64,000 bases of DNA from Thermoplasmatales archaeon (GCA_020350825.1 CP070724.1:2012848-2076847); one strand, 5' to 3'. Counted from the stretch's first letter, positions 7,969-51,540 are shown. The notes: generated from the letters alone by a model not told the origin. Made by a program: numbers and translations.

Positions 7969-8976
7969 TTATTTCTGATATACTACAAAAAAACGAGTCA
8001 AGCTTCTATGAACTCTATATTCATATTTTTTCAATAATGAAAAATACCTCTCACCAAGGGTAATCATATTTTTATTTGACAAACCTACTACTGCTATTCC
8101 ATTTTTTTTCAATACTTTTGCGATATTCTCAAACGTACGATCATAAAGCCTATTAATATTCTCGCCTTTTGTTGTAGTTGATTTTCCATAGGGCAGATCT
8201 GTTACAATTGCATCTACATCACTAATATAGTTATTAATCTCACCAATATCAGAACAAAAGAGTTTGTAGTCTTCAATCTTATAAAAATCCAGAGTTTTTT
8301 TGCAACCTTTTATCATTTTCTCCTCTATATCGCTACCAATTATCTTTGCACCGATTATTCCTGCTTCAATTAATATACCGCCGGTGCCACAAAAAGGATC
8401 TAACAATTTTTCATTTTTTTTGATAGAGGATAAGTTAACTAATGTACGTGCCAATTTTGGATGAAGAGAAATAGGTGAGAAAAATGGTCTATGGTGAACC
8501 TTTCTTTTTTCAAATAAACTTCTCTTTATTTCAACTATTTTTAAACCGACATATACATTGGTATCAGTAATGAATACACGCATCTCTAGATCTGGGTTAT
8601 CTAGATTTACAGGATTATCTTTAGTATATGTTTCTGCTAGTGCTCTCACTATTGGCTGTGAATCAACAGAATTTGATCTATTCTTATAGTTTATCGCAAT
8701 TGATCCTTCCCTGTCTATTATGTTACTTTTTGTGTATTTTTTAATCTCATCAAGAGAAGTAGAACAAGAAAACAACAGTTCATCAATAAAAAATGTGAAA
8801 GACAACCTTTCAGCAAGTCTCTCTATTTTGTCATAAGCAGCATCTGAATTAATAACCAATACATTTTTATTTGAAACAACAACATTGTAAATAATTGCTT
8901 CGGCTTTTAAACAAGATAAAACCTCATCTTTAGGTAGAGTGTTATGTTCCTTAGATAACTCAAATAGTAATTTCAC
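7969..8976 (-). CDS. THUMP-domain tRNA (guanine-N2) methyltransferase, Trm11/Trm-G10-like
   Basis: SAM-binding DPFCGTGG and catalytic DLPYG motifs in the C-terminal half. The N-terminal half is THUMP-like. Confidence 0.6.
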   Translation of the reverse strand: MKLLFELSKEHNTLPKDEVLSCLKAEAIIYNVVVSNKNVLVINSDAAYDKIERLAERLSFTFFIDELLFSCSTSLDEIKKYTKSNIIDREGSIAINYKNRSNSVDSQPIVRALAETYTKDNPVNLDNPDLEMRVFITDTNVYVGLKIVEIKRSLFEKRKVHHRPFFSPISLHPKLARTLVNLSSIKKNEKLLDPFCGTGGILIEAGIIGAKIIGSDIEEKMIKGCKKTLDFYKIEDYKLFCSDIGEINNYISDVDAIVTDLPYGKSTTTKGENINRLYDRTFENIAKVLKKNGIAVVGLSNKNMITLGERYFSLLKKYEYRVHRSLTRFFVVYQK

Positions 8977-9501
8977 AAATTTACTAAATGTTATCGTTGT
9001 TTAAATGTTGCTTTAAAATTTTCTAACAATATATTAAAATTACAGCCTACCACCAAATTAATCTCTATTTTCCACTATTTCTTTACTTTTAAGAATTTTT
9101 TTACTTTTTTTAAGGACTCATCATACCATTTTTTCCTTTATTATTTACTTCATAATTCCATATAGTAAAAGCAGTATGCCAATCATCAATATCATTTTCA
9201 GTTCTCCATTTTAACCATATTTATCCACGATGTATTTCCATACTTCTCCCATACGTATTTCTATTTTTTCTGTATATTGCATTTTTATTTTCACCCCATC
9301 TTTTAATACTATTCTTTTAATGATACAATAACGAACATAGTTGCTAATTGTGATTCTGAAATCTTCTCCTTATTTAAAACTTTTACTCCCCCCACTTTTT
9401 CTAAATTACATATATGAATTCATATGATTCAAGTGATTATACGTTGAAAAGTACCATTCCTAAGAAATATACACAAATTGATTATAACGTTAAATATTAG
9501 G

Positions 9502-9924
9502 TTATTTAAAATTATATGCACCCATAAGAGTATTTGTTGGTATATGTCTAAGTGCCAAATTACCGTTACAGTTAACCACTACATCTCCTTCTTTAATAGG
9601 TCCAGATGGGAGTGTTGCATTTCCCGAACATATTTCATTATCTTCCCAGTTCAAATTAGAATTATATATTTTTTGAACAGTTAGGGTTCTAGTGTTTTTA
9701 TCCATTGAAAATAAAACTGGAAGTTTTTCCTTTCCTTTTATATTAGTACGTTCAAAAATAAAAATTGAAAGGAAGAGACAAAATAATCCTGTTATAAAAA
9801 GTTGAATATGATAAATCCAAATGGCAGTAAACCAACAAATTATCCAAGCATATCCAAATAATTTCTCTATTGACTGTATCTTTTTTTGTATCGATTTTAG
9901 TTTTTCAATTACATCTAAGTCCAA
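9502..9924 (-). CDS. hypothetical membrane protein
   Basis: 140 aa with two predicted TM helices (WIICWFTAIWIY.., GLFCLFLSIFIF). No motif. Confidence 0.3.
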   Translation of the reverse strand: MDLDVIEKLKSIQKKIQSIEKLFGYAWIICWFTAIWIYHIQLFITGLFCLFLSIFIFERTNIKGKEKLPVLFSMDKNTRTLTVQKIYNSNLNWEDNEICSGNATLPSGPIKEGDVVVNCNGNLALRHIPTNTLMGAYNFK

Positions 9925-10391
9925 GAGCGCACATCCATCCTAATTTACCAATATCCCAATGCTTGAAATAATTTACTATGTTATAAACTGTCTTCTCCCA
10001 CAAATGGATTTACATTTTAATGTAGTAACAAATCTACGCAATATGATATTGTATAATAAATAAGAACTTGTAAAAATCTCCAAAAATGTTAATATGTCAT
10101 AGAAGATATTTGATATCTAATGTTTGAAAATAGAAGTGAACGGCAATTAATTATAATATATTTAATTATTGCATTAGTAATTACCTTGTTATTAGCCGTT
10201 TTTCATATATATCAAGGGCTCCACCCTTACTACATAATTATTGCGGCAAATATTGAGTTTTTTTGTATATTTTATGTTTTGTATTTTCCATTAAAAGTAA
10301 AGAAGGAACAAAAGTAGTCTTTTTATTTAAATAATCACTTGAGTTTTATTTTAAACTTACTTTGCAAATCGGTACAGATATGATATTGTAA

Positions 10392-10450
10392 AAGGGGTCA
10401 GAAGGGAGGAAAATGATGGAAAAAAATCATTTTCAAAAGTTTTGACCCCT
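10392..10450. other. 8-bp inverted repeat (aggggtca ... tgacccct) enclosing a ~43-nt loop; candidate small structured RNA
   Basis: Direct reading of the inverted repeat in a gene-free region. Confidence 0.3.
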
Positions 10451-10545
10451 CTAGTGGGTGTTATAGTCTTTTTGTTAATAAATATAATCTTATTGTCAAT
10501 TTTTCAAAAAACATTATAAAAAATGTTTTGAAGGATGGGAGCATA

Positions 10546-10606
10546 TATTCGATAAACGACAGGAAAAGTCCTGTAACTCCCTTCCTTCTTGCCTACATAT
10601 TATTTA
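10546..10606. ncRNA. candidate structured small RNA: 12-bp outer stem with a nested 6-bp inner stem
   Basis: Outer stem gaaggatgggag / ctcccttccttc (11 of 12 complementary). Inner stem acagga / tcctgt with a 4-nt loop. No ORF. Strand undetermined. Confidence 0.3.
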
Positions 10607-11195
10607 TATTTCTGGAGGTATTTAAATAATTTCATAATTATTTACGACAATTGTCGAAAAATAATGCAATTTTATATGTTCTAAGGTCTATGAATTGCAT
10701 TATTGCTAAAAATGAAAAAAATGCCTTAGAGGGTTTTTTGTACTACTATTAATCTAATTTCAACAGGGTTGTTACATCAAGTAATGTTAATCTCCTTGAG
10801 GCCTGAAAAACCAATCAAATGTAAGCCTTTTCTTTTTACGTTTTAACCTTTCTGCATCTTTTTGTGCGCTTATCATCCCATCTTCTTTTTTCTGGTTTCT
10901 ATTTGATTTACTGATTTTATTTTGTGTGTCATGGAATTTTCCTTGTGCTTGTTTCCATTTTCTATTGAACATATTATTAGTTTGACTTTCCTCCAATATT
11001 ATTGCTACATCTAAAGATGGGAGAGTTTATAAATGCTATCCTTTATCACATTTTCTGCTAACTAAAACTTATTGGCAGTAATTATTTTATCGATTATATT
11101 ATTATATTTGAATATTCAAAAAGCGGGAACAAAAAATTAATAAATAATAATCCATTTCGTCTTATAAATATTTAGAAGAGGATGAGGATGCTATT

Positions 11196-11384
11196 ATGCA
11201 GGAAGTTTTGTATAATATTGAGATAAAGAGAGATGAGAACAAATATCTAGGTAAAATATATTCAGAGATCGATGGGGTAAGGGAATTTAAAAATGAACAC
11301 ATAGATAGATTACTTAATGATATGACTGTTGACATGCAGCTAACTCTTGATGAGTTTTCTAATCACTCTATAATATTTGAATAA
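11196..11384 (+). CDS. small HicB-like / UPF0150-family protein (possible orphan antitoxin)
   Basis: 62 aa. YNIEIKRDENKYLGKIYSEIDGVREF matches the HicB N-terminal strand-turn pattern. A purine-rich stretch (gaggatgaggatg) precedes the start. Confidence 0.3.
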   Translation: MQEVLYNIEIKRDENKYLGKIYSEIDGVREFKNEHIDRLLNDMTVDMQLTLDEFSNHSIIFE

Positions 11385-11549
11385 AATCTAGAAAGAATAA
11401 AAAAAGAGTATTAATGAATTGATTTCATTTTACCGTTGCTTTAATCTTATGGTTAACTATCAAAAAGCATATCTTATTTGCTTAGTGTTTAAATGATGGA
11501 TTCAAGTTTTGATTTCATAATGTTTGATGATCTCATTTTTTTACGTTTC

Positions 11550-12761
11550 TTAAAATAGAGCTTTAATTAAAAACGGTGTTATCAAAGTAGTTGCAATAGT
11601 TAATAGAATAGTTACTGCAAGTATCTGATGTTCAACCTTTGGACTACTAAACATCCCATGAGAAATTGCAGAGCTTACAATTATTAGTGCCAACTCCATT
11701 CTTGGGACCATTCCCACTCCTATCTGTAAAGATTCTCGATTTTTCATACCGGCAAGTTTTGCTCCGATTCCACAGCCCACAATTTTTCCCACGATGGCAA
11801 CGATAATAATTACTAACGCTATTAATCCAATAGTAGCAAACGAAGAGAGGTCTTGGCTAGCACCTACCCATAAATTGGCCCCAGTCCATACAAAAAACAG
11901 CGGAATAAAAAATCCGTATCCTATAGCTCGTACATCGTCGATAATTTTTCTAGATTTTAATGTATGTCCAATGATAAGTCCGGCAACAAACGCACCAATT
12001 ATTCCTGCTATTCCGCTTTTATCGGCAAAAAATGAAAATAAAAGGAAGATGGCAAGAGAAATACTTAACAAGGCTTTTGGAAGGTGTATTTTTTCCCCAA
12101 GATCTAAGATTTTATCCACAATTTTTAATCCAAGATATAGGAATATTAGTAAGAAAATAATTATTTTTATACCTATATAAATCGGTGAGTCTATTCCCAA
12201 AATGAATGCCAATAAAATAATACCTAAAACATCATCAATTACCGCACTACTAAGAATTGTAACACTAACATCTGAATCAAGAGCATGTAAATCCATCAAT
12301 GTTCTTACAGTTACACCAACAGAGGTAGCGACAAGTATTAGGGCGATAACAATACTATCTTGCTGCGAAAAACCGAAAAACATACCAACAACAATACCTA
12401 GTATTAATGGCAAAAATATCCCACCGACAGCTACAAATAATGACGGTTTTTCTATTTTCTTTAATTTGGGTAAACTTGTTTGTAACCCAGAGATGAACAG
12501 TAAGAATAATATTCCTATCTCTGCTAATAACTTGAATTCCCAAGAATTATAATTCAATTGAGGTAGAAAAAAAGTTAAATTTAAAAAAGAAAAACCTTGT
12601 CCAGAAAAAACTACTAATCCTAATCCTCCCAGAACTATACCTGCAATTATTTCACCTATCACCGCAGGTTGTTTTAGTCTGTCAAATACAAAACCCATGA
12701 TCCTTGCAAATATGAGAGCTAAGGCAATTAATAATACAAAATCAAATACCGTTAAAATCAA
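11550..12761 (-). CDS. monovalent cation:proton antiporter, CPA2 (KefB/NapA-like) family
   Basis: About 12 TM helices. N-terminus ...FARIMGFVFDRLKQPAVIGEIIAGIVLG is typical of Kef-type antiporters. Confidence 0.85.
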   Translation of the reverse strand: MILTVFDFVLLIALALIFARIMGFVFDRLKQPAVIGEIIAGIVLGGLGLVVFSGQGFSFLNLTFFLPQLNYNSWEFKLLAEIGILFLLFISGLQTSLPKLKKIEKPSLFVAVGGIFLPLILGIVVGMFFGFSQQDSIVIALILVATSVGVTVRTLMDLHALDSDVSVTILSSAVIDDVLGIILLAFILGIDSPIYIGIKIIIFLLIFLYLGLKIVDKILDLGEKIHLPKALLSISLAIFLLFSFFADKSGIAGIIGAFVAGLIIGHTLKSRKIIDDVRAIGYGFFIPLFFVWTGANLWVGASQDLSSFATIGLIALVIIIVAIVGKIVGCGIGAKLAGMKNRESLQIGVGMVPRMELALIIVSSAISHGMFSSPKVEHQILAVTILLTIATTLITPFLIKALF

Positions 12762-13255
12762 GCTTCTTTATCCTCTGTTATCGAATGATATTGAGTGGCA
12801 TCATAATATTTTCTAATTAACTGATGTAAGGTAAGTTCCCCTATTACCTCCTTATCTTCCAATACAGGAAGTCTTCGCAACCGATGTTTTGTCATTTTTT
12901 GAAGGACATCGACAATTTTTTCATATTGATTACAGGTAACAAGCCGTACACTCATAATATCTGCTGCGGTTTTTGCTGTTCCGTGGTGAATCGATTTTAC
13001 ATCGGGCATACCGAATACATATGATGGAAATTTTTTTGGAGCTAGTATTGAAAGAACATCATGTTCTGTTATCACACCTACGAGCTCTTTTTTTTCTTTA
13101 TCTTTTACTACCCAGATGTGGTTTCTAGCACCTAATATATTTAGGATATGTTGAATATCTTCGTTTTCTTCAATTATGGGCAGATCCCATATTCTTTTAT
13201 CCATCACCTGTTTTACAGTAAGTTCATAGAAATCAGGAATCAATCGTTTTGGCAT
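12758..13255 (-). CDS. CBS-domain pair protein, translationally coupled to the antiporter
   Basis: Two CBS motifs. Overlaps the downstream antiporter by 4 nt. Confidence 0.75.
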   Translation of the reverse strand: MPKRLIPDFYELTVKQVMDKRIWDLPIIEENEDIQHILNILGARNHIWVVKDKEKKELVGVITEHDVLSILAPKKFPSYVFGMPDVKSIHHGTAKTAADIMSVRLVTCNQYEKIVDVLQKMTKHRLRRLPVLEDKEVIGELTLHQLIRKYYDATQYHSITEDKEA

Positions 13256-13284
13256 GATAAAACATAAAACCCAAAGTTGTATTT

Positions 13285-13444
13285 AAAAGCTATTTAGGTA
13301 AGGAGAACTTTCCTTAAAACTCTCCTTTAAGAACAGTTCAAAAATGCGTCTTTGATGATCGAGATTAAAAAAATTCTTACTAACCATAAGTGGAGAAGGA
13401 TATCTTTAATCCTTCTCTATTTTCTTTATTTTTTTAATAATAAT
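13285..13444. repeat. ~160-bp direct repeat, copy A (partner at 15860-16020)
   Basis: About 88% identical to copy B by eye. Contains hairpin gagaagga-N9-tccttctc (13393-13417) followed by a T-rich run. Confidence 0.9.
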
Positions 13445-13661
13445 CCTCCGACCCATAACAAATCTTCTTGAGCTGTTACAAAGTGGTTACATTCCCCTTT
13501 TCGCTGTAAATTTCGTCGAAAAATTATACTTTTTTCTAAAACCTTTCTTCTCTCTATTTTGAACTTACTCGGATACTATTAATAAAAATTTTAGCTAATC
13601 TAATATCTTCTCTTCTATCAGCTTTATCAAATTCCAATATTCAGGATGATATTTTTAAGTT

Positions 13662-14753
13662 CTAACTTCCGAAAAAGATTTGGGCGATCTCATAAAGATC
13701 CATATCAACCGTTTTTAATCTTGAAACAGACTTTTCAAGTTCAACTGGGACAATTTTATTTCCCTGTAATGCAACCATTTTCCCATAATTATCCTCATTT
13801 ATTAAGTCAACAGCCGCAACACCAAATCGTGTTGCTAAAACCCGATCATAAGCAGAAGGTGTACCCCCTCTTTGTACATGACCAAGAATAGTAACCCTTG
13901 TATCAACTCCCAAACGTTTCTCGATTTCATTTGCTAGAAAATGTCCAATTCCTCCAAGTTTTACATGGCCAAATTCATCCTTCTCCTCAGTTTGAGTAAT
14001 CAGGGTACCTCCTTCCCCAATAAAACTAGTATCCCCTTCTACACCAGTTTGAGAAACCGATAAGTCCTTTTTTATGGGTTGTGCACCCTCAGCTACTACA
14101 ACTATACTGAATTTTTTACCACGATCATAACGTGCCTTCAGATGATTACAAACAAATTCAATATCAAATTGTTCCTCAGGAATCAATATCTCATCAGCTC
14201 CACCAGCAATACCTGCCACTGTCGCAATCCATCCTGCATGCCTCCCCATTACCTCCACGACTATTACTCTATGATGAGACTCAGCAGTTGTATGAAGCCT
14301 ATCTATAGCCTCAGTAACGATAGAAACCGCGGTATCAAATCCAAATGTATAATCAGTGCCAAAGAGATCATTATCAATAGTTTTTGGAATACCTACCACG
14401 GGAATACCAATCTTATGTAATTTTAAAGCGACACCAAGAGTATCCTCACCGCCGATAGCTGCAATAGCATCAATCCCAAATCTTTTAGTATTCTCAGTAA
14501 GCTTTTGCACATCCTCCTCATATTTAAACGGATTTGTACGCGATGTCCCAATGATAGTTCCACCCTTTGGAAGGATGCCAGAGACAGTGTAATCTGTAAG
14601 TGGTTCCACATCGCCTTCTATTAGACCCTTCCATCCATTTCTAATACCAATGATCTCCCAGCCATATTTAATAGATTTTTTTACAACAGCTCGGATAACA
14701 GCATTCAAACCTGGGCAGTCTCCTCCACCAGTTAAAACTCCAATTTTTTTCAT
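13662..14753 (-). CDS. pfkA: 6-phosphofructokinase, PFK-A family (bacterial type)
   Basis: MKKIGVLTGGGDCPGLNAVIRAVV ... GGDGT-like ... PKTIDNDL motifs. ATG at 14753 overlaps the fba stop as ATGA. The track start at 14774 is a spurious upstream extension. Confidence 0.9.
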   Translation of the reverse strand: MKKIGVLTGGGDCPGLNAVIRAVVKKSIKYGWEIIGIRNGWKGLIEGDVEPLTDYTVSGILPKGGTIIGTSRTNPFKYEEDVQKLTENTKRFGIDAIAAIGGEDTLGVALKLHKIGIPVVGIPKTIDNDLFGTDYTFGFDTAVSIVTEAIDRLHTTAESHHRVIVVEVMGRHAGWIATVAGIAGGADEILIPEEQFDIEFVCNHLKARYDRGKKFSIVVVAEGAQPIKKDLSVSQTGVEGDTSFIGEGGTLITQTEEKDEFGHVKLGGIGHFLANEIEKRLGVDTRVTILGHVQRGGTPSAYDRVLATRFGVAAVDLINEDNYGKMVALQGNKIVPVELEKSVSRLKTVDMDLYEIAQIFFGS

Positions 14754-15694
14754 AAAACTAATTCCTCCTCCCAAGCCTTATCAGCTGAGCCAAGTATATC
14801 AATCTTTTCTTTGACTACATCATATATAGCATTTCGTGCAGGACCTAATATCTTCCTTGGATCAAATTGCTCTGGTGAATTAGCAAATACTTCTCTTATT
14901 GCAGTAGTGAATGCCAGTCTCAAATCAGTATCAATATTTATCTTATTGATTCCCAGTTTAATCACTTTTTTTATGTGTTCAGTGGGAACACCTTTTGCAC
15001 CTGGTATTTTTGCACCATATTTTGCTGCCTTTTTAAGGATATTTTCAGGAACACTTGAAGCACCGTGTAGCACTAATGGGATTTTTGTCAAATTTTTTGT
15101 TTCATCCAATCTCTCAAAATCTAGTTCTGCTTCTCCTTTGAATTTAAAAGCACCATGAGACGTTCCTATGGCAGGGGCCAATGAATCAATTTCTGTTTCT
15201 TCTACGAATAATTTAGCATCCTGAGGGTTTACTAAAATCGCATCTCTTTCTAATACAGAGACATTATCCTCGATGCCTTGTAATCTACCAAGTTCGGCTT
15301 CCACAGAAACATTATGGGTATGAGCTGTTTTTACTACTTTTTTTGTTTCTTCAATATTCTCATCTAATGATAAGTGTGAAGCATCAATCATCAATGATGT
15401 GTAACCGTATTTTATGCATTTTTGTATAACTTCGAAATTCTTACCATGATCTAAATGAAGAGCTATGGGTACACTTGTTATATTTGCCGCTGTTTTTACC
15501 ATTGATACAAGATAATTTATACCGGCGTATTTAATTGCACTTTCACTCGTAGCGATTATTACTGGAGAATTCTTTTCTTCAGCCGCTCTAATAATACCTT
15601 GAAAAATTTCCATATTATTGATGTTAAACGCCCCAACAGCATATCCTCCAACATTTGCTGCATCTAAAATTTCCTTACCTGTAACTAAACTCAT
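14750..15694 (-). CDS. fba: fructose-bisphosphate aldolase, class II (bacterial type)
   Basis: GYAVGAFN...HLDHG...class II Zn-aldolase signatures. 314 aa. Confidence 0.9.
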   Translation of the reverse strand: MSLVTGKEILDAANVGGYAVGAFNINNMEIFQGIIRAAEEKNSPVIIATSESAIKYAGINYLVSMVKTAANITSVPIALHLDHGKNFEVIQKCIKYGYTSLMIDASHLSLDENIEETKKVVKTAHTHNVSVEAELGRLQGIEDNVSVLERDAILVNPQDAKLFVEETEIDSLAPAIGTSHGAFKFKGEAELDFERLDETKNLTKIPLVLHGASSVPENILKKAAKYGAKIPGAKGVPTEHIKKVIKLGINKINIDTDLRLAFTTAIREVFANSPEQFDPRKILGPARNAIYDVVKEKIDILGSADKAWEEELVL

Positions 15695-15859
15695 ATTTCC
15701 ATCTCCTCAAAGATTCATACTAAAATCCATATTAATAGCTTGCTATAAAAACAATAAAATGAAAAAACAGATGGAAGATGAAATGAAATTATTGTATGCA
15801 GTTTACCCTACTTTTTAATGGATCGGATTTGGAAAAATGAAAAGGCTATAATTAGAGTA

Positions 15860-16020
15860 AAAAGCTATTTAGGTAAGGAGAACTTTCCTTAAAACTCTCC
15901 TTTAAGAACAGTTTAAAAATGCGTCCTTGATGATAGAGAATAAAAAAATTCTTACTAACTATAAATGGAGAATGAAATCTTCAATCATTCTCTATTTTCT
16001 TTATTTTTTTAATAATAATC
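15860..16020. repeat. ~160-bp direct repeat, copy B (partner at 13285-13444)
   Basis: Same orientation as copy A. Hairpin gagaatga-N9-tcattctc (15968-15992) differs from copy A by a compensatory pair change, G-C to T-A at stem position 6. Confidence 0.9.
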
Positions 16021-16271
16021 TTATGGATACATAACAACATTGATATTCAAAAAATATAGGGGAAAAATTTAGTGTTTTCTAACTTAGCAGAGAAATTTAT
16101 TGATTTGAGCTTTTATTTCGTTTTTAAATTTTCAATTTGTAATTATTGAAATTGAATCAGAATAGCACGCACTGGTTTTGTTACAGATGTTTCAAATAAA
16201 AATTCATCATAACATTTAAATCGATTTTGGATATATCTTATTTGTATATCGCATATATGGGGAGGTAAATT

Positions 16272-17186
16272 ATGCTGCAGTCTTTCTTATTACCACCTGT
16301 TAAAGCAGTTCGAATAGCTTGGGCACGCACTGGTGATTTTTCAGAAAACTCACATTCTCGACGTTATGCAGATCAGGCTAAGACAGAACTGAAAGATATT
16401 AAAAGGCAAGCAGAAGGAGATAAAAAAGAAAGGAGATATGTAAGTGATGCTATAGCAATCATAGAAGCTAGCTTGCGCAACCTTGACACAATCTACAAAG
16501 GGCGTGAACTCAATTTTTATGAGAATGAAAAATTAAGATTATCTCATCTAGAATCTGTAAAACAAAGCCTGGAATTTGGAAACAAAGCAAAAGATTTTTT
16601 AAAATCTCTGCCCACTATGACAATTGGTTCTGCAAGCGGTATTACTGTAGCTCAACTTCTTGGAGCTACCGTTATGCAATTGTGGGCTGTAGGTTTGTTG
16701 TTTGCCGCTGTTGGTTATTTAGTCAATTGGATTATTGTAGATAGAATGCGTATAGAAAAACAATGGAACTTTATTCTTCAGGATTATGAAAGAGGGCTTT
16801 ACTATGTCCAATATCTTAACAGAGTCACTGAAGCATTAGCATCTTTGTATAATAGTATAGATCAAATCCATAAAACTGTTTTTAATCAAAAATACCCAAT
16901 AGATACAGATGTAATTAAGATTATCAATGAATTGTTAAGGGGAATTCGACCAACATATTGTGATTATGTTAAGGAACATTTAAAGACCGAGGTAATTGTA
17001 GATAAAAAAGGTAAAGAAAAAAAGGGATGGTTAATAATGAATGGAAAGGAAAAGAAAGGGAGGAAAAAAAAGAAAGCAATGTGGGAGCAGTGGTCGGTGT
17101 GTGAATCTGGGATCGAAGAAGCTGTAGAAAAATGCCGGTTTTGGGAGGGGAAAAAACCCAAGGAAATTGAAGTAAAAAAAACTTAG
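16272..17186 (+). CDS. hypothetical membrane protein (central TM hairpin, Lys-rich C-terminal tail); upstream partner of the EEP nuclease
   Basis: 304 aa. Hydrophobic segment TMTIGSASGITVAQLLGATVMQLWAVGLLFAAVGYLVNWIIV. No recognisable domain. 10-nt gap to the next gene. Confidence 0.5.
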   Translation: MLQSFLLPPVKAVRIAWARTGDFSENSHSRRYADQAKTELKDIKRQAEGDKKERRYVSDAIAIIEASLRNLDTIYKGRELNFYENEKLRLSHLESVKQSLEFGNKAKDFLKSLPTMTIGSASGITVAQLLGATVMQLWAVGLLFAAVGYLVNWIIVDRMRIEKQWNFILQDYERGLYYVQYLNRVTEALASLYNSIDQIHKTVFNQKYPIDTDVIKIINELLRGIRPTYCDYVKEHLKTEVIVDKKGKEKKGWLIMNGKEKKGRKKKKAMWEQWSVCESGIEEAVEKCRFWEGKKPKEIEVKKT

Positions 17187-17196
17187 GAGAGAGAAT

Positions 17197-18174
17197 ATGA
17201 GACCTATACCAGATTTTTTTGAACCACCACCTAGTCATGTAGTAAATGACTATTATAATTTAGTGGTTGCTTTGAATAACACAATACCTGAAAAAACAAG
17301 CAATAATCTCTTGATTGCAACCTGGAATTTAAAGAAATTTAGCTCATTAACTAAGAAATGGTTATCTGATTCCAATGACAGTCCAAAAAGGGATTTTACT
17401 GCTATACAAACTATTACCGAAATTGTTTCTAGATTTGATGTTGTTGCTATCCAAGAAGTTATGGGAAATCTGCGTGCTCTTCGTTACTTAATTAATATGC
17501 TTGGTAAAGATTGGGCGTTCTTAATGACTGATATTACCCTTGGGGTTGCAGGGGGTGCTGAAAGAATGGCATTTGTTTTTAATCGTACTAGAGTTAAACT
17601 CTCAGGTTTGGCATGTGAACTGGTGATTCCTCCAGACTGGTCTGAAAATATAACAAATCAATATCCCCAACAATTTGCGCGTACACCTTATGCTGTAAGT
17701 TTTAAACGAGAATCGGCAACATTCATTCTTGTCACCTTACACATTGATTATGGGGACCAATCAATAGATAGGATTCCTGAATTAAAAGATATTGCAAAAT
17801 GGATGTACGATTGGGCTGAACGTGTAACCAGCTGGCATCATAATCTTATCACCCTAGGAGATTTTAATATCGATAGAGAAGGCGATGAATTATGGGGCGC
17901 TTTCACCTCAACAGGGTTAAAGGTTCCAAAATGCTTAGAAAATCAAAAAAGATCAATTTTTGCAACTGCTGAAGATACAAAGAAAGAAAAATATTATGAC
18001 CAAATCGCATGGTTTCAAGATAGTGCGAAAAATAACCTCATAGAAATGAAAATCAATGATGGGGATAATTTTGATTTTCTCCCTTATGTATATCAACATC
18101 TTTCATTGAAAAAAAATTCGATCCAGCACAGAATATCGGATCACTATCCTCTTTGGTGTGAATTTATAATTTAA
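17197..18174 (+). CDS. endonuclease/exonuclease/phosphatase (EEP, DNase I-like) family nuclease
   Basis: EEP motifs LIATWNL, VVAIQEV, LGDFN, SDHYP. No signal peptide. Confidence 0.75.
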   Translation: MRPIPDFFEPPPSHVVNDYYNLVVALNNTIPEKTSNNLLIATWNLKKFSSLTKKWLSDSNDSPKRDFTAIQTITEIVSRFDVVAIQEVMGNLRALRYLINMLGKDWAFLMTDITLGVAGGAERMAFVFNRTRVKLSGLACELVIPPDWSENITNQYPQQFARTPYAVSFKRESATFILVTLHIDYGDQSIDRIPELKDIAKWMYDWAERVTSWHHNLITLGDFNIDREGDELWGAFTSTGLKVPKCLENQKRSIFATAEDTKKEKYYDQIAWFQDSAKNNLIEMKINDGDNFDFLPYVYQHLSLKKNSIQHRISDHYPLWCEFII

Positions 18175-18564
18175 TAGAGCATATTGATAGTACCGTGTAA
18201 AATTACCTGTATTTCCAATATGTTTCGCTAGATACTCTCAGATAAATGGTGTGTTCAGATGAAAAATTTTTAAATTTCTCTCCTGTCACACAGGATCAGT
18301 TTTAATGACCTCCTATAGTATTATACAATGAGGGGGATCCCTTATTATGATCTTTGGTTCTTGATTGTTGCCAAGTATGGACTACATACCCAGCTATAAA
18401 CCCATCAACTGTCTAATTATTGGAAAAATCCGTGGATGATTCTGATACTTATATTGTTGCTCGGTTTAAACTAATTTTTTGAATGTAACAATCATTAACA
18501 AGGTTATTTGGCAAAACAAGCATTTGCTTGGATTATTATGTGAAGCCGCATTTGAATTGCAATT

Positions 18565-18609
18565 ATGATTCATAAAAGAATAAAAAGAAGGAATAACCAT
18601 TCTATTCCT
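18565..18609 (-). terminator. hairpin plus T-tract terminator candidate downstream of the 18632-19069 gene
   Basis: aggaata-N7-tattcct (18589-18609), followed on the minus strand by ttctttttattcttttatg. Confidence 0.45.
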
Positions 18610-18631
18610 CCTTTCATTATGATTTAATTAT

Positions 18632-19069
18632 TTATGCCCAGAAATAAGCTGATTCTCCTACATTGTTATCTTCTCTTATCTCAGTAAGCTCATGGTAAAA
18701 ATCTGTTACTGCAACACACTTATATCGTTCTGGTGGATCATTAGTCAAATAAAAAAGTTTAGACACAGGAACCGTCCATCCTCTAGGTATACCAATAGGA
18801 TGCGTGTAATCCTTTAATATTAACCAAGACTGCCCATCGTCTAGAAAAAGCAATGTATTAAACCCAGGATCAGCACCATGATCACCAATGTTTTTTACCC
18901 ATGCCGTCACAAGATGCCAATTTTGCACAGGACCAGGTACAACCGTTACACTTGTAATTGTCAGATCTGGCATTGGAGAATAATCTCCGCTACTTACAAT
19001 AGGTACAGTAGAAAACAGTAAAATAGCTACCATCAGCCCCAATACTAAAAATCCTAATTTCCTCTTCAT
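18632..19069 (-). CDS. secreted protein with CARDB-like domain
   Basis: Signal peptide MKRKLGFLVLGLMVAILLF. DLTITSVTVVPGP...VKNIGD resembles the CARDB domain. Confidence 0.5.
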   Translation of the reverse strand: MKRKLGFLVLGLMVAILLFSTVPIVSSGDYSPMPDLTITSVTVVPGPVQNWHLVTAWVKNIGDHGADPGFNTLLFLDDGQSWLILKDYTHPIGIPRGWTVPVSKLFYLTNDPPERYKCVAVTDFYHELTEIREDNNVGESAYFWA

Positions 19070-19096
19070 TGTATTTCAACCTCCGATATTATTTTG

Positions 19097-19146
19097 ACCT
19101 CCCGAGAATAAGGTTCCTTTAGGCATATTTTTCCGTCCCGGTCGTT
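19097..19146. promoter_or_regulatory. conserved ~50-bp upstream element, copy 1 (partner at 20018-20068); likely shared promoter or leader
   Basis: acctcccgagaataaggttcctttaggcatatttttccgtcccggtcgtt, about 28 nt upstream of the ATG at 19069. The minus-strand sense contains aaaaatatgcc (TATA-like). Confidence 0.4.
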
Positions 19147-19267
19147 ATAATACCATAAAAAACAAGAGTGATAAAGAGATAGTACACTTTCCCAAATTGA
19201 TATCACTACCATAATGATCTACCCTAAATTTTTTATAAATATTTTTTAATACAACAGTCGTCACACT

Positions 19268-19966
19268 TTAGTTGTCCCAAGCCCAAGCGTCGAGAGTATA
19301 AGAACCAACGCAATTGTCTCCAAAATCATAGCAGTAAACCTTTATCTTGTAATCCCCATCGAAAATACTAGAATTAATCTTGTCACTTACATGGTCTGTT
19401 AAGGTACCCCATCGAATGCTCTTTTTTGCAAAACTCCAGGACCACCAGATACGTTCCCACAGATAAAGATCACAATCCCCACTATGTGTGGATAATGTAA
19501 TATCACACTCATCTACATCATAGAAATAAAAGTAGTGACTTTGTCCTTTCGTGAGGTTACCAGAAGTATGGATATGATAAGTCTCCAAACTGTTTCCCTT
19601 TAAGCCATCCAAACCTATTGCGATGTGCAAGGATGACAATACATCATCCAAAGAAGGAAAATCTTTCTTTGATGTAGCATGGAGATCCCTTCCGTGAAAC
19701 AACGTTCGTCTTACTTGAGCCTGCTTTTGATATAGTGGCTCCAAGATCTTTTTTTGTTCTTCCCTGTTTTTAGGTGCGAACACCTCTACCTGCAACTCAG
19801 GTTGTTTTCGCTGCTGGAAAGCAACGACTAACTGTTCTGGTCCTGCGACTGTAACTTTAAACTGTTTCCGTTTTTTTTCATCACTAAGCGAAAATGGTAG
19901 CGTGATTAAATCGTAAGCAGCATATTCTTCTGTAGGTTTCACTTTCATAAAATCAAGTGTCTTCAT
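19268..19966 (-). CDS. protein with C-terminal pre-peptidase C-terminal (PPC)-like domain
   Basis: The C-terminal segment GDCDLYL...DYKIKVYCYDFGDNCVGSYTL resembles the PPC / P-domain. ATG at 19966 (MKTLDF...) is preferred over the TTG at 19996 used by the track. Confidence 0.45.
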   Translation of the reverse strand: MKTLDFMKVKPTEEYAAYDLITLPFSLSDEKKRKQFKVTVAGPEQLVVAFQQRKQPELQVEVFAPKNREEQKKILEPLYQKQAQVRRTLFHGRDLHATSKKDFPSLDDVLSSLHIAIGLDGLKGNSLETYHIHTSGNLTKGQSHYFYFYDVDECDITLSTHSGDCDLYLWERIWWSWSFAKKSIRWGTLTDHVSDKINSSIFDGDYKIKVYCYDFGDNCVGSYTLDAWAWDN

Positions 19967-20017
19967 ATTAACCCGCCTTAAAACTCGATTATCCAATCTT
20001 TCTCATCTCCATTCTAT

Positions 20018-20068
20018 ACCTCCCGGGAATAAGGTTCCTTTAGGCATCATGTTTCCGTCCCGGTCGTT
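20018..20068. promoter_or_regulatory. conserved ~50-bp upstream element, copy 2
   Basis: acctcccgggaataaggttcctttaggcatcatgtttccgtcccggtcgtt, upstream of the 19268-19966 gene. Confidence 0.4.
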
Positions 20069-20317
20069 TAAACAACTAATATAATCATCGTGATTAAGAG
20101 AAAATATGCTTTTCCAAATTGACATCATTTCCTTACTGACCTCCCCGGATTAAATTGTGTCACTTGTACACAATCAATTGATATTTGTAATATTATGGAA
20201 AATGTATCAGCTCCATTTTCCAACAAATTATGCAACACATTATGGGTATTTATACTTTTCCCATTTTCCCATTAACCCCATAAAACTAAATATTAGTGTA
20301 CACATTATAATTTGTAG

Positions 20318-20515
20318 ATGGAAAAATTACTTGGTAAACCCCGACAAATAGACAGTAGAAACAGGGTAACACTTCCTCCTGAAGTTTTGAAACTCTTAAA
20401 CTTAAAACCAAAAGATGAAGTATTCTTTAAGGTTAAGGGGGGGAAAATAATAATGGGTAAAGCCCTGATAAAATACGAGCTTATTGATGAGATCATAGGT
20501 ATTAAAAAAGAATAG
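20318..20515 (+). CDS. AbrB/SpoVT/MazE-family swapped-hairpin DNA-binding protein (antitoxin-like), orphan
   Basis: IDSRNRVTLPPEVLKLLNLKPKDEVFFKVKGGKIIM matches the SpoVT-AbrB domain consensus. Confidence 0.6.
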   Translation: MEKLLGKPRQIDSRNRVTLPPEVLKLLNLKPKDEVFFKVKGGKIIMGKALIKYELIDEIIGIKKE

Positions 20516-20517
20516 GT

Positions 20518-20766
20518 TTACATACCTAGTTCTTCTTTTATTTGTTGTGCTCTCCGGTTTTTTACATACCAGAGAGTTGTTTTCATATGTTCGATAACAT
20601 CATCAAGGCTTTTATCTTGATCTTTGAACTCTTGCAATAAAATAATTTCGTACTCAATATATTTTTCTATTACGTCTTTTCTATGTTTCTCAAGTTGAGG
20701 ATCAGTTTCCTTAAAATCAATAATACTATACGATTCTTTTTCCTTCATTATATATCCCTCCCTCAT
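20518..20766 (-). CDS. hypothetical small acidic protein
   Basis: 82-aa ORF convergent with the AbrB-like gene. No motif. Confidence 0.3.
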   Translation of the reverse strand: MREGYIMKEKESYSIIDFKETDPQLEKHRKDVIEKYIEYEIILLQEFKDQDKSLDDVIEHMKTTLWYVKNRRAQQIKEELGM

Positions 20767-21125
20767 GTCAATTTGACAAATATTAACAGGGATTAATAAT
20801 ACTCTTATTATTATTTAAAGCCATATTTACTAATTTCCCTACAAAAAACCAAAATAAAGTAACATTTTTTACGTTTGTAGGATTTTAAACAACAGCAAAT
20901 ATATTCTTAATAACAGATATATATTGGACAGTGGTTATACACTTTTAGTATGAATATGCATCCATTTCTTTATAAATCCTTTTTTTCACTTACTCAATTT
21001 AATAGTAAAACTATGTCTCAGCTATTTGAACGAATGAAGTGTAGTGGAAATGAAGGGTAGTGGTTTCATTTTATCTACTGGGCTTACAATGTATTCAAAA
21101 ATGATGTGAGGTTGAAACATATAAG

Positions 21126-22292
21126 CTATTTACTTTTATTTTTTTTAGAACTCTTTTTTAATTTTTTATCGACCTGGGATTTAATATCGTATACTCCTTC
21201 AAACCACTTATCTTCCATTTGCTCTTCAATCTCTCCAGTTAACTCATTTATCTTGTACTTCATATGATCTTTTCCTTTAAACCACTCATATTCGTCCTTT
21301 TTATGGTTGGATATGACCTTCTCTGTTTCTTCCTCCACTACATATTTTATTTCCTTCTTTTTTTCTGATCTTTGAATTCTTATCTCTTCTACTCGAGGTT
21401 CTTTTTCCGACAATGGCAATTTTTCTTTAGCTTTTGCGTCTGAAGGTGTCTTTATTTGATTAGTCTTGTTAGTAATATTTTCTTTTTTATTTTTAATGCT
21501 TTTCTCAGGAGAATCTGCTTTAATTTCAATTGTCGGTTTTGGTAATTCTTTTCTAAATCTTACAAATAATATCGCAAACATGAGGACAAGTACCGCTGCG
21601 ATAATTGGCGTTAAACTATCCATGAATATACTTTCCGGCACATTTTCTGCACGTATTGTAGTTGAGCCTACAAAATATCCTCCCTTAAAGGCATTAATAT
21701 TGATCTCGACATCATCAGTAACGTCTGGTGCTGTAAGATATGCTATGCCATTTGAACCGGTGGTATCTGAATCGCCTTCAGATCCATCTATATCCAAATA
21801 TACAGTGGAGCCCTCCACCCTATTGCTATTCTGATCCCAAACAATCACACAAAAGCTCTCTTTCTCCTTAACTGTTCCACGATCTGTTGTTACCGATAAT
21901 TCTCCCTTTAAAACCTTAATTTCTTGTTCAGCAGAAGTGTATCCATCTTTTAATGCAGTTATAACAAACTCAGGATATTCTTCAAAATCTGGTGTTTCTA
22001 TGGTTATCCATGGTGATTCCTCACTAGTTATACACGGGACTTCCCAAGGTACACTTACAGTTACATTATAGACATATCCATATTGATTTTCACAGCCTAT
22101 TGCTATGTCATATTTTTTACCCTCTAAAAATATATTTTCTTCTATTGGAAGACATGTTTCTGAATTGTGGATGACAATAAAAAGCGTATTTTCTTCTTGG
22201 GCTAAGGCATTTAATGAAAATAGAACACTAGTTAATAGTAATATTAAAATTGAAAACGCAAAACAAATTTGAAATTTTTGATGCTTTTCTAT
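21126..22292 (-). CDS. secreted, single-pass membrane-anchored protein with a K/E-rich cytoplasmic tail; start codon uncertain
   Basis: The open frame continues upstream of the track start (a GTG) through signal-peptide-like KHQKFQICFAFSILILLLTSVLFSLNALA-QEE. There is no in-frame ATG/GTG/TTG before the stop at 22311-22313. An SD-like aggtggtgg lies just upstream of ATA 22292. TM helix PIIAAVLVLMFAILFV. Confidence 0.45.
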   Translation of the reverse strand: MEKHQKFQICFAFSILILLLTSVLFSLNALAQEENTLFIVIHNSETCLPIEENIFLEGKKYDIAIGCENQYGYVYNVTVSVPWEVPCITSEESPWITIETPDFEEYPEFVITALKDGYTSAEQEIKVLKGELSVTTDRGTVKEKESFCVIVWDQNSNRVEGSTVYLDIDGSEGDSDTTGSNGIAYLTAPDVTDDVEININAFKGGYFVGSTTIRAENVPESIFMDSLTPIIAAVLVLMFAILFVRFRKELPKPTIEIKADSPEKSIKNKKENITNKTNQIKTPSDAKAKEKLPLSEKEPRVEEIRIQRSEKKKEIKYVVEEETEKVISNHKKDEYEWFKGKDHMKYKINELTGEIEEQMEDKWFEGVYDIKSQVDKKLKKSSKKNKSK

Positions 22293-40591: not shown

Positions 40592-41092
40592 TTGTTTTTA
40601 TGTGCTGTTTTTTCCTTTTTTATATCAAAAAAAATGCATATAGGTGCTGTAAGCAAAAAGAAAATATATAGAATTCCTGACGGTAGAATTGCGTATTCCG
40701 ATTTGAATATTCCAGCAAAAGCATTGTTTTCAAAACGCTATAGAATAGCTGGTAAACCAGATTACATTGTGAAGAGAAATCATCACTATATCCCTATTGA
40801 AGTGAAATCAGGATCATATCCAAATCCACAGAGAAACCATATTTTACAACTTGCAACGTATTGTCAATTGATAGAGGATAATTATAGAGATTTTGTTCCT
40901 TACGGTATAATCATTTACAAAGACTCTGATTTCAAAATACCATTTGATCCAAAACTACGATTTGAGTTAGCATCTGTTATTAACGAGATAAGAGGATCGT
41001 TAAAAAATGATAAAATAGTATTAAATCATAATGATCCAGGGAGATGTAGATTTTGCTCGATGAGGTCGTATTGTACAGAGAAACTGGTTTAA
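40592..41092 (+). CDS. Cas4-like / DUF83 PD-(D/E)xK nuclease, C-terminal part (other reading frame)
   Basis: GKPDYIV...IPIEVKSG (D...E-x-K) and C-terminal CRFCSMRSYC tri-cysteine cluster. Starts with a hydrophobic segment. Confidence 0.5.
   Translation: MFLCAVFSFFISKKMHIGAVSKKKIYRIPDGRIAYSDLNIPAKALFSKRYRIAGKPDYIVKRNHHYIPIEVKSGSYPNPQRNHILQLATYCQLIEDNYRDFVPYGIIIYKDSDFKIPFDPKLRFELASVINEIRGSLKNDKIVLNHNDPGRCRFCSMRSYCTEKLV

Positions 41093-47833: not shown

Positions 47834-51540
<3,707 letters not shown>

Follow-up and report, generated by a model that had tools for sequence, protein, structure and literature searches.

In a 64-kb stretch of DNA from a Thermoplasmatales archaeon (GCA_020350825.1, CP070724.1:2012848-2076847; hereafter, the window), a bacterial-type pair of glycolytic genes, fba and pfkA, lies between two direct repeats of 161 nt (13285-13445, copy A, and 15860-16020, copy B). 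On the best reading of the sequence, both repeats would be recombination junctions, of the att type, of an island composed of two blocks, the first of which carries the fba-pfkA pair. That the two blocks represent tandem insertions at one short chromosomal core can be stated with high confidence, whereas our confidence is moderate that a site-specific recombinase acted on them in trans, through circular intermediates. Taken jointly, tandem insertion at one core and an enzyme in trans with circular intermediates appear to us, on balance, probable.

The two repeats lie on the same strand and align without gaps over their entire length, with 10 mismatches (93.8% identity; blastn E-value of copy A against copy B, 8e-68), and no third copy is present in the window. 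An earlier note on this DNA had described the repeats as about 88% identical; its coordinates and strand were right, but that figure holds only for an alignment stretched to 187 nt (13259-13445). The edges of the repeats are sharp, in that the similarity between the flanking sequences does not exceed that of shuffled sequence on either side, and on this ground a longer ancient duplication was rejected. The same note had placed the repeats around a translationally coupled fba-pfkA pair, and we could indeed see an ATGA overlap between the two genes at 14750-14753.

Each repeat begins with the 12-nt sequence AAAAGCTATTTA, and the 10-mer contained in it, AAGCTATTTA, occurs at exactly three sites in the 64 kb (13287, 15862 and 21123), all of them on the plus strand and all of them junctions. 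On its left side, the homology between copies A and B stops at 13285, to within 0-2 nt of the left limit of the core that is repeated at the third site, an agreement that would not be expected from a random duplication. Since each 161-nt repeat starts with the chromosomal target that recurs at 21123, the repeat can be divided into a 12-nt core and a 149-nt imported arm, which we call X. At the first junction (J1), the host sequence on the left is followed by AAAAGCTATTTA and by the start of arm X, GGTAAGGAG; at the second (J2), the same core and the same start of X follow the end of the fba block; at the third (J3), the end of block 2 is followed by ATAAGCTATTTA and by the host sequence on the right. 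An independent short-read contig from Logan (L001, 14598-15889) spans J2, passing from the end of block 1 through the core and 18 nt into X; it would fit a tandem array as well as a circularised block 1.

The relatives available for comparison were 13 contigs, seven of them close (L042, L043, L012, L044, L045, L015 and L016) and six more distant, and the related loci that we fetched totalled 510 kb. In the close relatives, the sequence ending at 13296 in the window joins directly to the sequence starting at about 21120 (nucleotide identity of 92% for L042/L043, 91% for L012, 88% for L044/L045 and 75% for L015/L016). The 10-mer AAGCTATTTA is found exactly once in each of these seven contigs, at the junction between a CBS-domain gene and a conserved gene that we call u376, and is absent from the remainder of the 510 kb. 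By alignment with the relatives, the ancestral junction consists of GTTGTATTTAAAAGCTATTTA followed directly by CTTTTATTTTTTTTAGAAC (the right side can also be written CTTTTATTTT).

The gene order around the empty site is deeply conserved. A tblastn search recovered the series PGI, u376, CBS, kefB and THUMP methyltransferase down to about 57% KefB identity, with u376 and CBS separated by some 200 nt at most (in L014, which gave no CBS match, this distance is to kefB); L046 and L047 also keep u376 and CBS in order, with 36 nt between them. In 13 of the 13 related contigs u376 is next to CBS or kefB, as compared with the 7836 bp that lie between them in the window, and none of the genes fba, pfkA, u304 (coding for a membrane protein) and EEP (for a putative nuclease) was found within 10 kb of the locus in these contigs. 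Because the relatives join CBS to u376 directly, the 7836 bp in the window are an insertion specific to its lineage. The link that the earlier note had drawn between the repeats and the gain of a glycolytic cassette is borne out by the empty site in the relatives and by the core at every junction. The note had also pictured pfkA-fba as lying between CBS-kefB and an EEP module, a synteny not seen in the relatives, which carry neither module: the EEP genes, treated there as native neighbours, are themselves inserted DNA.

The target of the insertion is the 3' end of u376, whose stop codon TAG (21126-21128) is contained in the core as read on the minus strand (TAAATAGCTT). At the opposite end of the island, core copy 1 overlaps a putative TATA box of the CBS gene (minus strand TTTTAAATA, 13280-13288), and the insertion disrupted neither this box nor the reading frame of u376. 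Being located 25-33 nt upstream of the CBS ATG, TTTTAAATA would suit the TATA box of a leaderless mRNA, according to the spacing that is general for archaeal promoters. The features of the region are collected in Table 1.

Table 1. Features of the two-block island and of its immediate neighbours, in the order in which they occur in the window
Feature	Position	Strand	Remarks
kefB-like antiporter gene	11550-12761	-	
CBS-domain gene	12758-13255	-	coupled to kefB-like antiporter gene; native neighbour, putative TATA box abuts core
Core copy 1 (J1), attL-like	13285-13296	+	AAAAGCTATTTA; alignment with relatives reaches 13296
Arm X, copy A	13297-13445	+	149 nt; holds hairpins H1 and H2 and T-rich tract 13418-13435
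Spacer between arm X and pfkA stop	13446-13661		216 nt; unique; T5 tracts on minus strand
pfkA, bacterial-type ATP-dependent 6-phosphofructokinase	13662-14753	-	363 aa; PF00365, 5.8e-117
fba, class II fructose-1,6-bisphosphate aldolase	14750-15694	-	314 aa; PF01116, above curated cut-off
Block 1 right end, upstream of fba	15695-15859		unique; TATA-like TTTTTATAG, Shine-Dalgarno-like GAGGAG
Core copy 2 (J2), internal attP-like	15860-15871	+	AAAAGCTATTTA; block 1 end to the left, block 2 arm X to the right
Arm X, copy B	15872-16020	+	149 nt; H1 15875-15902, H2 15968-15992, T-tract as in copy A
u304, membrane protein	16272-17186	+	304 aa; best relative 58% identical; no Pfam/PADLOC family
EEP-family nuclease	17197-18174	+	weak MnuA-like nuclease match
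CARDB-like secreted protein	18632-19069	-	145 aa
242-aa protein	19268-19996	-	GC3 (G+C content at third codon positions) 0.37
AbrB/MazE-like antitoxin open reading frame	20318-20515	+	65 aa; no recognisable toxin partner
82-aa open reading frame	20518-20766	-	no family match
Core copy 3 (J3), attR-like	21121-21132	+	ATAAGCTATTTA, then ancestral sequence CTTTTATTTTTTTTAGAAC
u376, conserved	21126-22262	-	376-427 aa; signal-peptide-like N-terminus, weak Ig-like match, Lys-rich tail; putative surface protein

We propose that this arrangement most likely arose by two successive, conservative site-specific integrations into one chromosomal core (attB). In each of them, a circular gene-carrying element with an attP-like site (core plus X) would have recombined with the chromosomal core. 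After both events, copy A would represent attL and copy B an internal attP-like site, and attR would be the single core at 21123. Searches of Pfam, PHROGs and NCBIfam detected no recombinase, transposase or replication gene in the 7.8-kb island, nor did the scans of other window ORFs (open reading frames). Lacking a recombinase gene of their own, the two blocks would depend on an enzyme supplied in trans, presumably encoded elsewhere in the genome, and they would be cassettes or decayed elements rather than self-sufficient integrative elements.

The same end product, X-cargo-X with sharp-edged repeats in the same orientation, could also be reached by homology-driven entry without any dedicated recombinase, in one of two ways. 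With block 2 and one core plus X already in place, a circular or linear fba-pfkA fragment bearing a related core plus X could have entered by a single Campbell-type crossover within the 161 bp; or two alleles could have been stacked when the 12-bp core recombined unequally. An identity of 94% would permit homologous recombination, and the window holds no recombinase gene. However, the incoming molecule would already have to carry the core joined to X, i.e., the product of an earlier event, and the first insertion, with the 10-bp core at both of its ends, would be left unexplained. We consider this route unlikely.

Sequence similarity searches returned no relative of X. A nhmmer profile of the two copies found no further copy in the window plus 48 loci (the 510 kb of relatives); nothing was retrieved by an exact-pattern scan of a metagenome collection or, with four patterns, from viral contigs; and a distant blastn search of plasmids and phages gave only low-complexity, T-rich Staphylococcus matches. 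A 20-mer scan of 596 Gb of genomes gave one match (L008, 217-237), without extended similarity, which consisted of a 21-nt identity inside a Promethearchaeota coding region and was judged to be due to chance; accordingly, a single 20-mer match in AT-rich DNA is no evidence of homology. Within the window, 24 nt at 20693-20716 agree with the start of X, but this match was also judged fortuitous, because it lies inside an ORF and no core adjoins it.

These results bear on the idea, contained in the earlier note, that the repeat is a small mobile element akin to a miniature inverted-repeat transposable element (MITE). The 161-nt unit is discrete and sharp-edged, but its terminal inverted repeats did not score above shuffles, no target duplication was found around it, and beyond the two copies in the window there was none in the relatives or in the public scans, so that the MITE-like element had to be abandoned. 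A discrete unit in a metagenome-assembled genome might alternatively reflect an assembly artefact, in which two strain variants were joined through a shared repeat. Against this, contig L001 holds J2, which neither strain variant alone would have, and the 2.32-Mb contig argues for long-read support. A look-up for strain variants found no exact-protein records of the window's PfkA or CBS. Even taken together, a MITE-like element and an assembly artefact are, in our estimate, highly improbable.

Other observations count against the two site-specific integrations that we favour. All our window counts are bounded by the 64 kb considered, out of a genome of 2.32 Mb, and the scanned window ORFs of at least 100 aa yielded no domain of a tyrosine or serine recombinase. 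A lambda-type attP has arm sites on both sides, whereas here no similarity above that of shuffles was seen between the far end of block 1 and that of block 2, where P arms would be expected. Since X has no homologue, the case for X as a recombination site is built on the two copies of a single genome. All 10 differences between copies A and B fall outside the 54 nt nearest to the crossover, which has P = 0.014 for that specific segment, but an identical 54-nt run at an unspecified position has P = 0.16 and is not significant; the run is therefore only a hint. Finally, the GC3 of the inserted genes is host-like, at 0.22-0.28 (the gene for the 242-aa protein being somewhat higher), implying that the insertions are old or that the donor had a similar composition; as such, it is uninformative on recent transfer.

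Arm X, the only sequence common to both blocks, contains two hairpins. The first (H1, 13300-13327, AAGGAGA/TCTCCTT), separated from the core by 3 nt, has 12 pairs when folded as minus-strand RNA and is indistinguishable from shuffles when folded as DNA. The second (H2) has a stem of 8-9 bp, formed in copy A by GAGAAGGAT and ATCCTTCTC (13393-13401 and 13409-13417, with a 7-nt loop) and in copy B by GAGAATGA and TCATTCTC; on the plus strand, it can be extended to 13388-13422, giving 14 pairs if G-U pairs are included. Folded as DNA, H2 beat shuffles on both strands (z from -3.1 to -5.0), and the whole 161-nt unit folded slightly better than shuffles (z from -1.3 to -2.9).

In copy B, the top pair of H2 is lost and a T-A pair replaces G-C at repeat positions 114 and 128. 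The earlier note had reported the hairpin in both copies together with this compensatory replacement, and pairing of the stem is in fact kept. Given 10 random substitutions, a compensatory double change in the stem would occur by chance with a probability of about 0.01-0.02, which is suggestive, although it is one event between two sequences. The note's further claim, that the hairpin is under selection, is right in that the hairpin is constrained, though the argument from the change hangs on that single event. The change tells us that pairing matters, but does not specify for what. Because the replacement of G-C by T-A preserves pairing on both strands, and in DNA as well as in RNA, it is compatible with recognition by a recombinase as well as with a two-way transcription stop. 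The hairpins and T-tracts of X probably serve a recombinase as recognition structures, or stop transcription in both directions and so insulate the cargo from host genes, or do both.

The structure of X also invites an explanation in which the repeat is a functional RNA or a terminator-promoter unit, namely a plus-strand small RNA ending at H2 and its T-tract, or a module that was copied or selected together with the cassette. To our knowledge, termination in archaea needs no hairpin. As the earlier note had it, H2 is followed by a T-tract: TATTTTCTTTATTTTTTT lies directly 3' of H2 on the plus strand, in keeping with the consensus of intrinsic and archaeal oligo-T terminators, and a terminator scan picked up H2. 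The extended, 14-pair form of H2 and its conserved pairing, the H1 stem in minus-strand RNA and the slightly favourable folding of the whole unit all agree with an RNA function, as do the T7 and T5 runs on the minus strand of X, downstream of pfkA (copy A begins 216 nt past this gene).

Other data are harder to accommodate. There is no co-oriented plus-strand gene upstream that runs into either copy, and the distance to the next minus-strand start codon is 29 nt for one copy vs 165 nt for the other, so that the terminator/promoter unit suggested in the earlier note fits poorly. In Rfam searches, only a tRNA passed the gathering threshold in the whole window, and in the region 13100-16300, with E-values of up to 10 allowed, the best matches on the repeat had E of about 7, far below threshold. 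None of the relatives has the unit at this deeply conserved locus, and neither the insertion itself nor the start of the unit exactly at the chromosomal core that recurs at 21123 would be explained. Copy A contains a 33-codon ORF on the minus strand, whose ATG is ATA in copy B. We regard a functional RNA or terminator as quite unlikely to account for the repeats, but it can coexist with an att-type junction as a secondary role of X.

Two further candidate functions were tried and rejected. A coding function of X was discarded because, besides the loss of the ATG, all five differences within the 33-codon ORF change an amino acid. As for a C/D-box small RNA, reading of the sequence revealed a UGAUGA, but the CUGA D box was absent.

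If the island were an integron-like cassette array, X plus core (on the minus strand) would correspond to attC and the chromosomal core to attI, with IntI encoded elsewhere. The site does lie almost wholly on one side of the crossover, there is one site per cassette end, the site contains a hairpin, and the cargo is accessory, promoter-bearing and inclusive of an antitoxin-like gene. Integrons and integrase-less attC clusters (the latter known as clusters of attC sites lacking integron-integrases, CALINs) are on record in archaeal genomes (PMC9668308). They resemble our island in the serial capture at one point, in the one structured site per cassette and in that the integrase may be absent from the array. 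However, the attC core motifs RYYYAAC and GTTRRRY are absent from both strands of both copies, flanks included, and the core 10-mer is not GTTRRRY. Instead of one long imperfect palindrome that pairs its ends into a single bottom-strand hairpin, X folds into two separate short hairpins, with end-to-end pairing limited to weak A-U/G-U pairs in one prediction. No integrase gene is nearby (the neighbours are u376 and CBS-kefB), and the window contains no match to a PF00589-type integrase. The cassettes themselves, of 2.6 and 5.3 kb, hold several genes in both orientations with promoters of their own, unlike typical single-ORF cassettes. An integron-like array is, in our opinion, very unlikely.

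Tandem site-specific integration by an enzyme in trans has parallels in several known systems. Integrative mobile elements that exploit a host recombinase (IMEX) and reside at dif, for instance those forming the Vibrio cholerae CTX/TLC/RS1 arrays, encode no integrase themselves and stack in tandem at one site by means of a recombinase acting in trans. The blocks described here are similarly tandem and devoid of an integrase, with a recombinase putatively in trans, but the core is no dif-like 28-bp palindrome, it is placed in a gene end/promoter spacer, and XerA, or another host enzyme, would be only a candidate for acting on it.

Bacteria offer documented precedents for islands that lack an integrase, accrete in tandem and have repeated att cores at their bounds (PMC5704250, PMC3146451). 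In the ICESt1/CIME arrays of Streptococcus thermophilus, cis-mobilizable elements (CIMEs) accrete in tandem (PMC5704250), and in the ssrA tandem islands of Dehalococcoides a conserved sequence lies beside each repeat, some of the islands having no integration genes (PMC3146451). As in these systems, our blocks break a conserved synteny, target a gene 3' end, lack integration genes and carry an adaptive metabolic cargo; moreover, a short target-derived core is found at both outer ends and at the internal junction, with conserved sequence on the element side. The differences are that the host is an archaeon, that the target consists of the last codons and stop of a protein gene beside a promoter rather than of a tRNA or tmRNA gene, that no integrase or remnant of one is visible in 7.8 kb, and that conservation is one-sided, spanning 149 nt on one arm and none on the other. 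Furthermore, both excision and the recombinase are putative here.

Block 1 (2575 bp) starts with X, ends with the core and contains fba and pfkA as its only genes. Both products score above the cut-offs of their families, PfkA with TIGR02483 (473.8 bits vs 430.55) and Fba with TIGR01859 (396.9 bits vs 343). The Fba protein is 100% identical to GenBank UCF12420.1 and is otherwise without close relatives, its best match being 76% identical. The 216-nt spacer between X and pfkA shows no similarity to the sequence past copy B.

The nearest fba-pfkA pairs, at about 72-76% protein identity, occur on Halobacteriota-type contigs (L002, 10001-11975, and L005, 3334-5308), where they lie between three V4R-domain genes and the gene for LonB protease. 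In both, a 20-nt spacer separates fba from pfkA, vs the ATGA overlap found here, and Fba has 307 aa vs 314. The pair has thus moved between archaeal lineages and come to lie in differing surroundings.

Block 2 (5261 bp) has the same layout, with X at its start and the core at its end. Its cargo (16021-21122), the whole of which is missing from the relatives, includes two secreted proteins. Attempts to recognise a defence system or a recombinase among the cargo, using Pfam, PHROGs, NCBIfam and PADLOC, yielded only the AbrB/MazE-like fold and the weak MnuA-like match, and both identities were discarded.

The genes for u304 and the EEP nuclease (16272-18174) form a two-gene module that recurs in inverted order in unrelated contigs (L009, 6891-8793; L010; L011), and homologues are scattered over bacterial and archaeal metagenome-assembled genomes. 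A second family of direct repeats is present in the island (19097-19224 and 20018-20146), corresponding to minus-strand leaders just upstream of the genes for the 145-aa and 242-aa proteins. The 3' 60 nt of these leaders are about 95% identical, AACGACCGGGACGGAAA.AT.ATGCCTAAAGGAACCTTATTCYCGGGAGGT, and include a possible CCGGGA/TCYCGG hairpin adjoining a Shine-Dalgarno-like GGGAGG; there was no Rfam match at the gathering threshold.

Of the native neighbours, the KefB-like antiporter is, like Fba, identical to a GenBank protein and has many relatives at 75-92% identity, and a look-up of the exact KefB protein led to a short contig that ends before CBS. The u376 homologue in the window is open for 378 codons, yet (21849-22262, minus strand) it shows no ATG, GTG or TTG in the first approximately 140 codons. 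The ATG of u376 in L044 is ATT both here and in L042, and the GTG annotated in L042 is GCG here. These comparisons point to either a rare start codon or the loss of the signal-peptide part of the gene.

The interval from the kefB stop to the gene for the THUMP methyltransferase holds a second island (9017-11546), which L042 and L012 share and L044, L046 and L013 lack. The final kefB codons are repeated, imperfectly and in direct orientation, at its two ends, and the left copy provides a new stop, so that KefB has 403 instead of 406 aa. At the same spot, L015 (approximately 8343-9817) and L016 have an unrelated 1.4-kb insert, also with repeats of the kefB end. Together, the second island and the insert of L015/L016 imply that insertions at gene 3' ends recur in this lineage.

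A loose motif, AAGC-N(1-4)-ATTTA, occurs six times on both strands of the window (128 kb in all), at 13287, 15862, 21123, 9002 (minus), 20818 and 8888 (minus). Island junctions account for four of the six sites, namely all three of the first island and the right-hand one of the second. The site at 20818 (TTTAAAGCCATATTTAC) resembles the ancestral attB and is found at a TATA-like box that precedes the 82-aa ORF. As both targets adjoin TATA-like boxes, the motif may reflect promoter composition rather than the specificity of a recombinase.

Elsewhere in the window, whose G+C content is 34%, there are genes for gingipain-type C25 peptidases and other secreted peptidases. This content, in an AT-rich member of the Thermoplasmatota, is compatible with the sediment lineage Marine Benthic Group D (MBG-D)/Thermoprofundales, to which we presume the host to belong. 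A gene for a bacterial-type NAD-dependent DNA ligase (LigA domains, BRCT; 47834-49822, minus strand) is directly coupled to a PolX/PHP polymerase gene (49822-51540, minus strand), and a solitary Cas4/PD-(D/E)XK nuclease-like gene is found at 40592-41092 (plus strand), unaccompanied by further cas genes in the window ORFs that were scanned.

Irrespective of the enzyme involved, the locus provides a base-by-base record of the entry of a bacterial-type phosphofructokinase and a class II aldolase into the chromosome of an uncultured archaeon, with junctions that are still legible, and it illustrates how small metabolic gene blocks without mobility genes stack at one archaeal chromosomal site. Should the X arm not be a recombination site, the locus would be a clean but ordinary genomic island bounded by att-type repeats. 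A more speculative possibility, to which we assign a low probability, is that X plus core is the recombination site of an undescribed archaeal cassette-capture system, with a one-sided site of about 160 nt that holds two hairpins and is unlike attC. On that equally doubtful view, integrase-less, promoter-bearing cassettes would enter serially at a host gene 3' end via a recombinase in trans, as a functional analogue of the integron. If the X arm does work as a recombination site, it would point to a recombinase, and to a pool of cassettes overlooked by present tools for finding integrons and islands; and if the capture system is real, it would have delivered bacterial-type genes of upper glycolysis to a peptide-degrading sediment archaeon.

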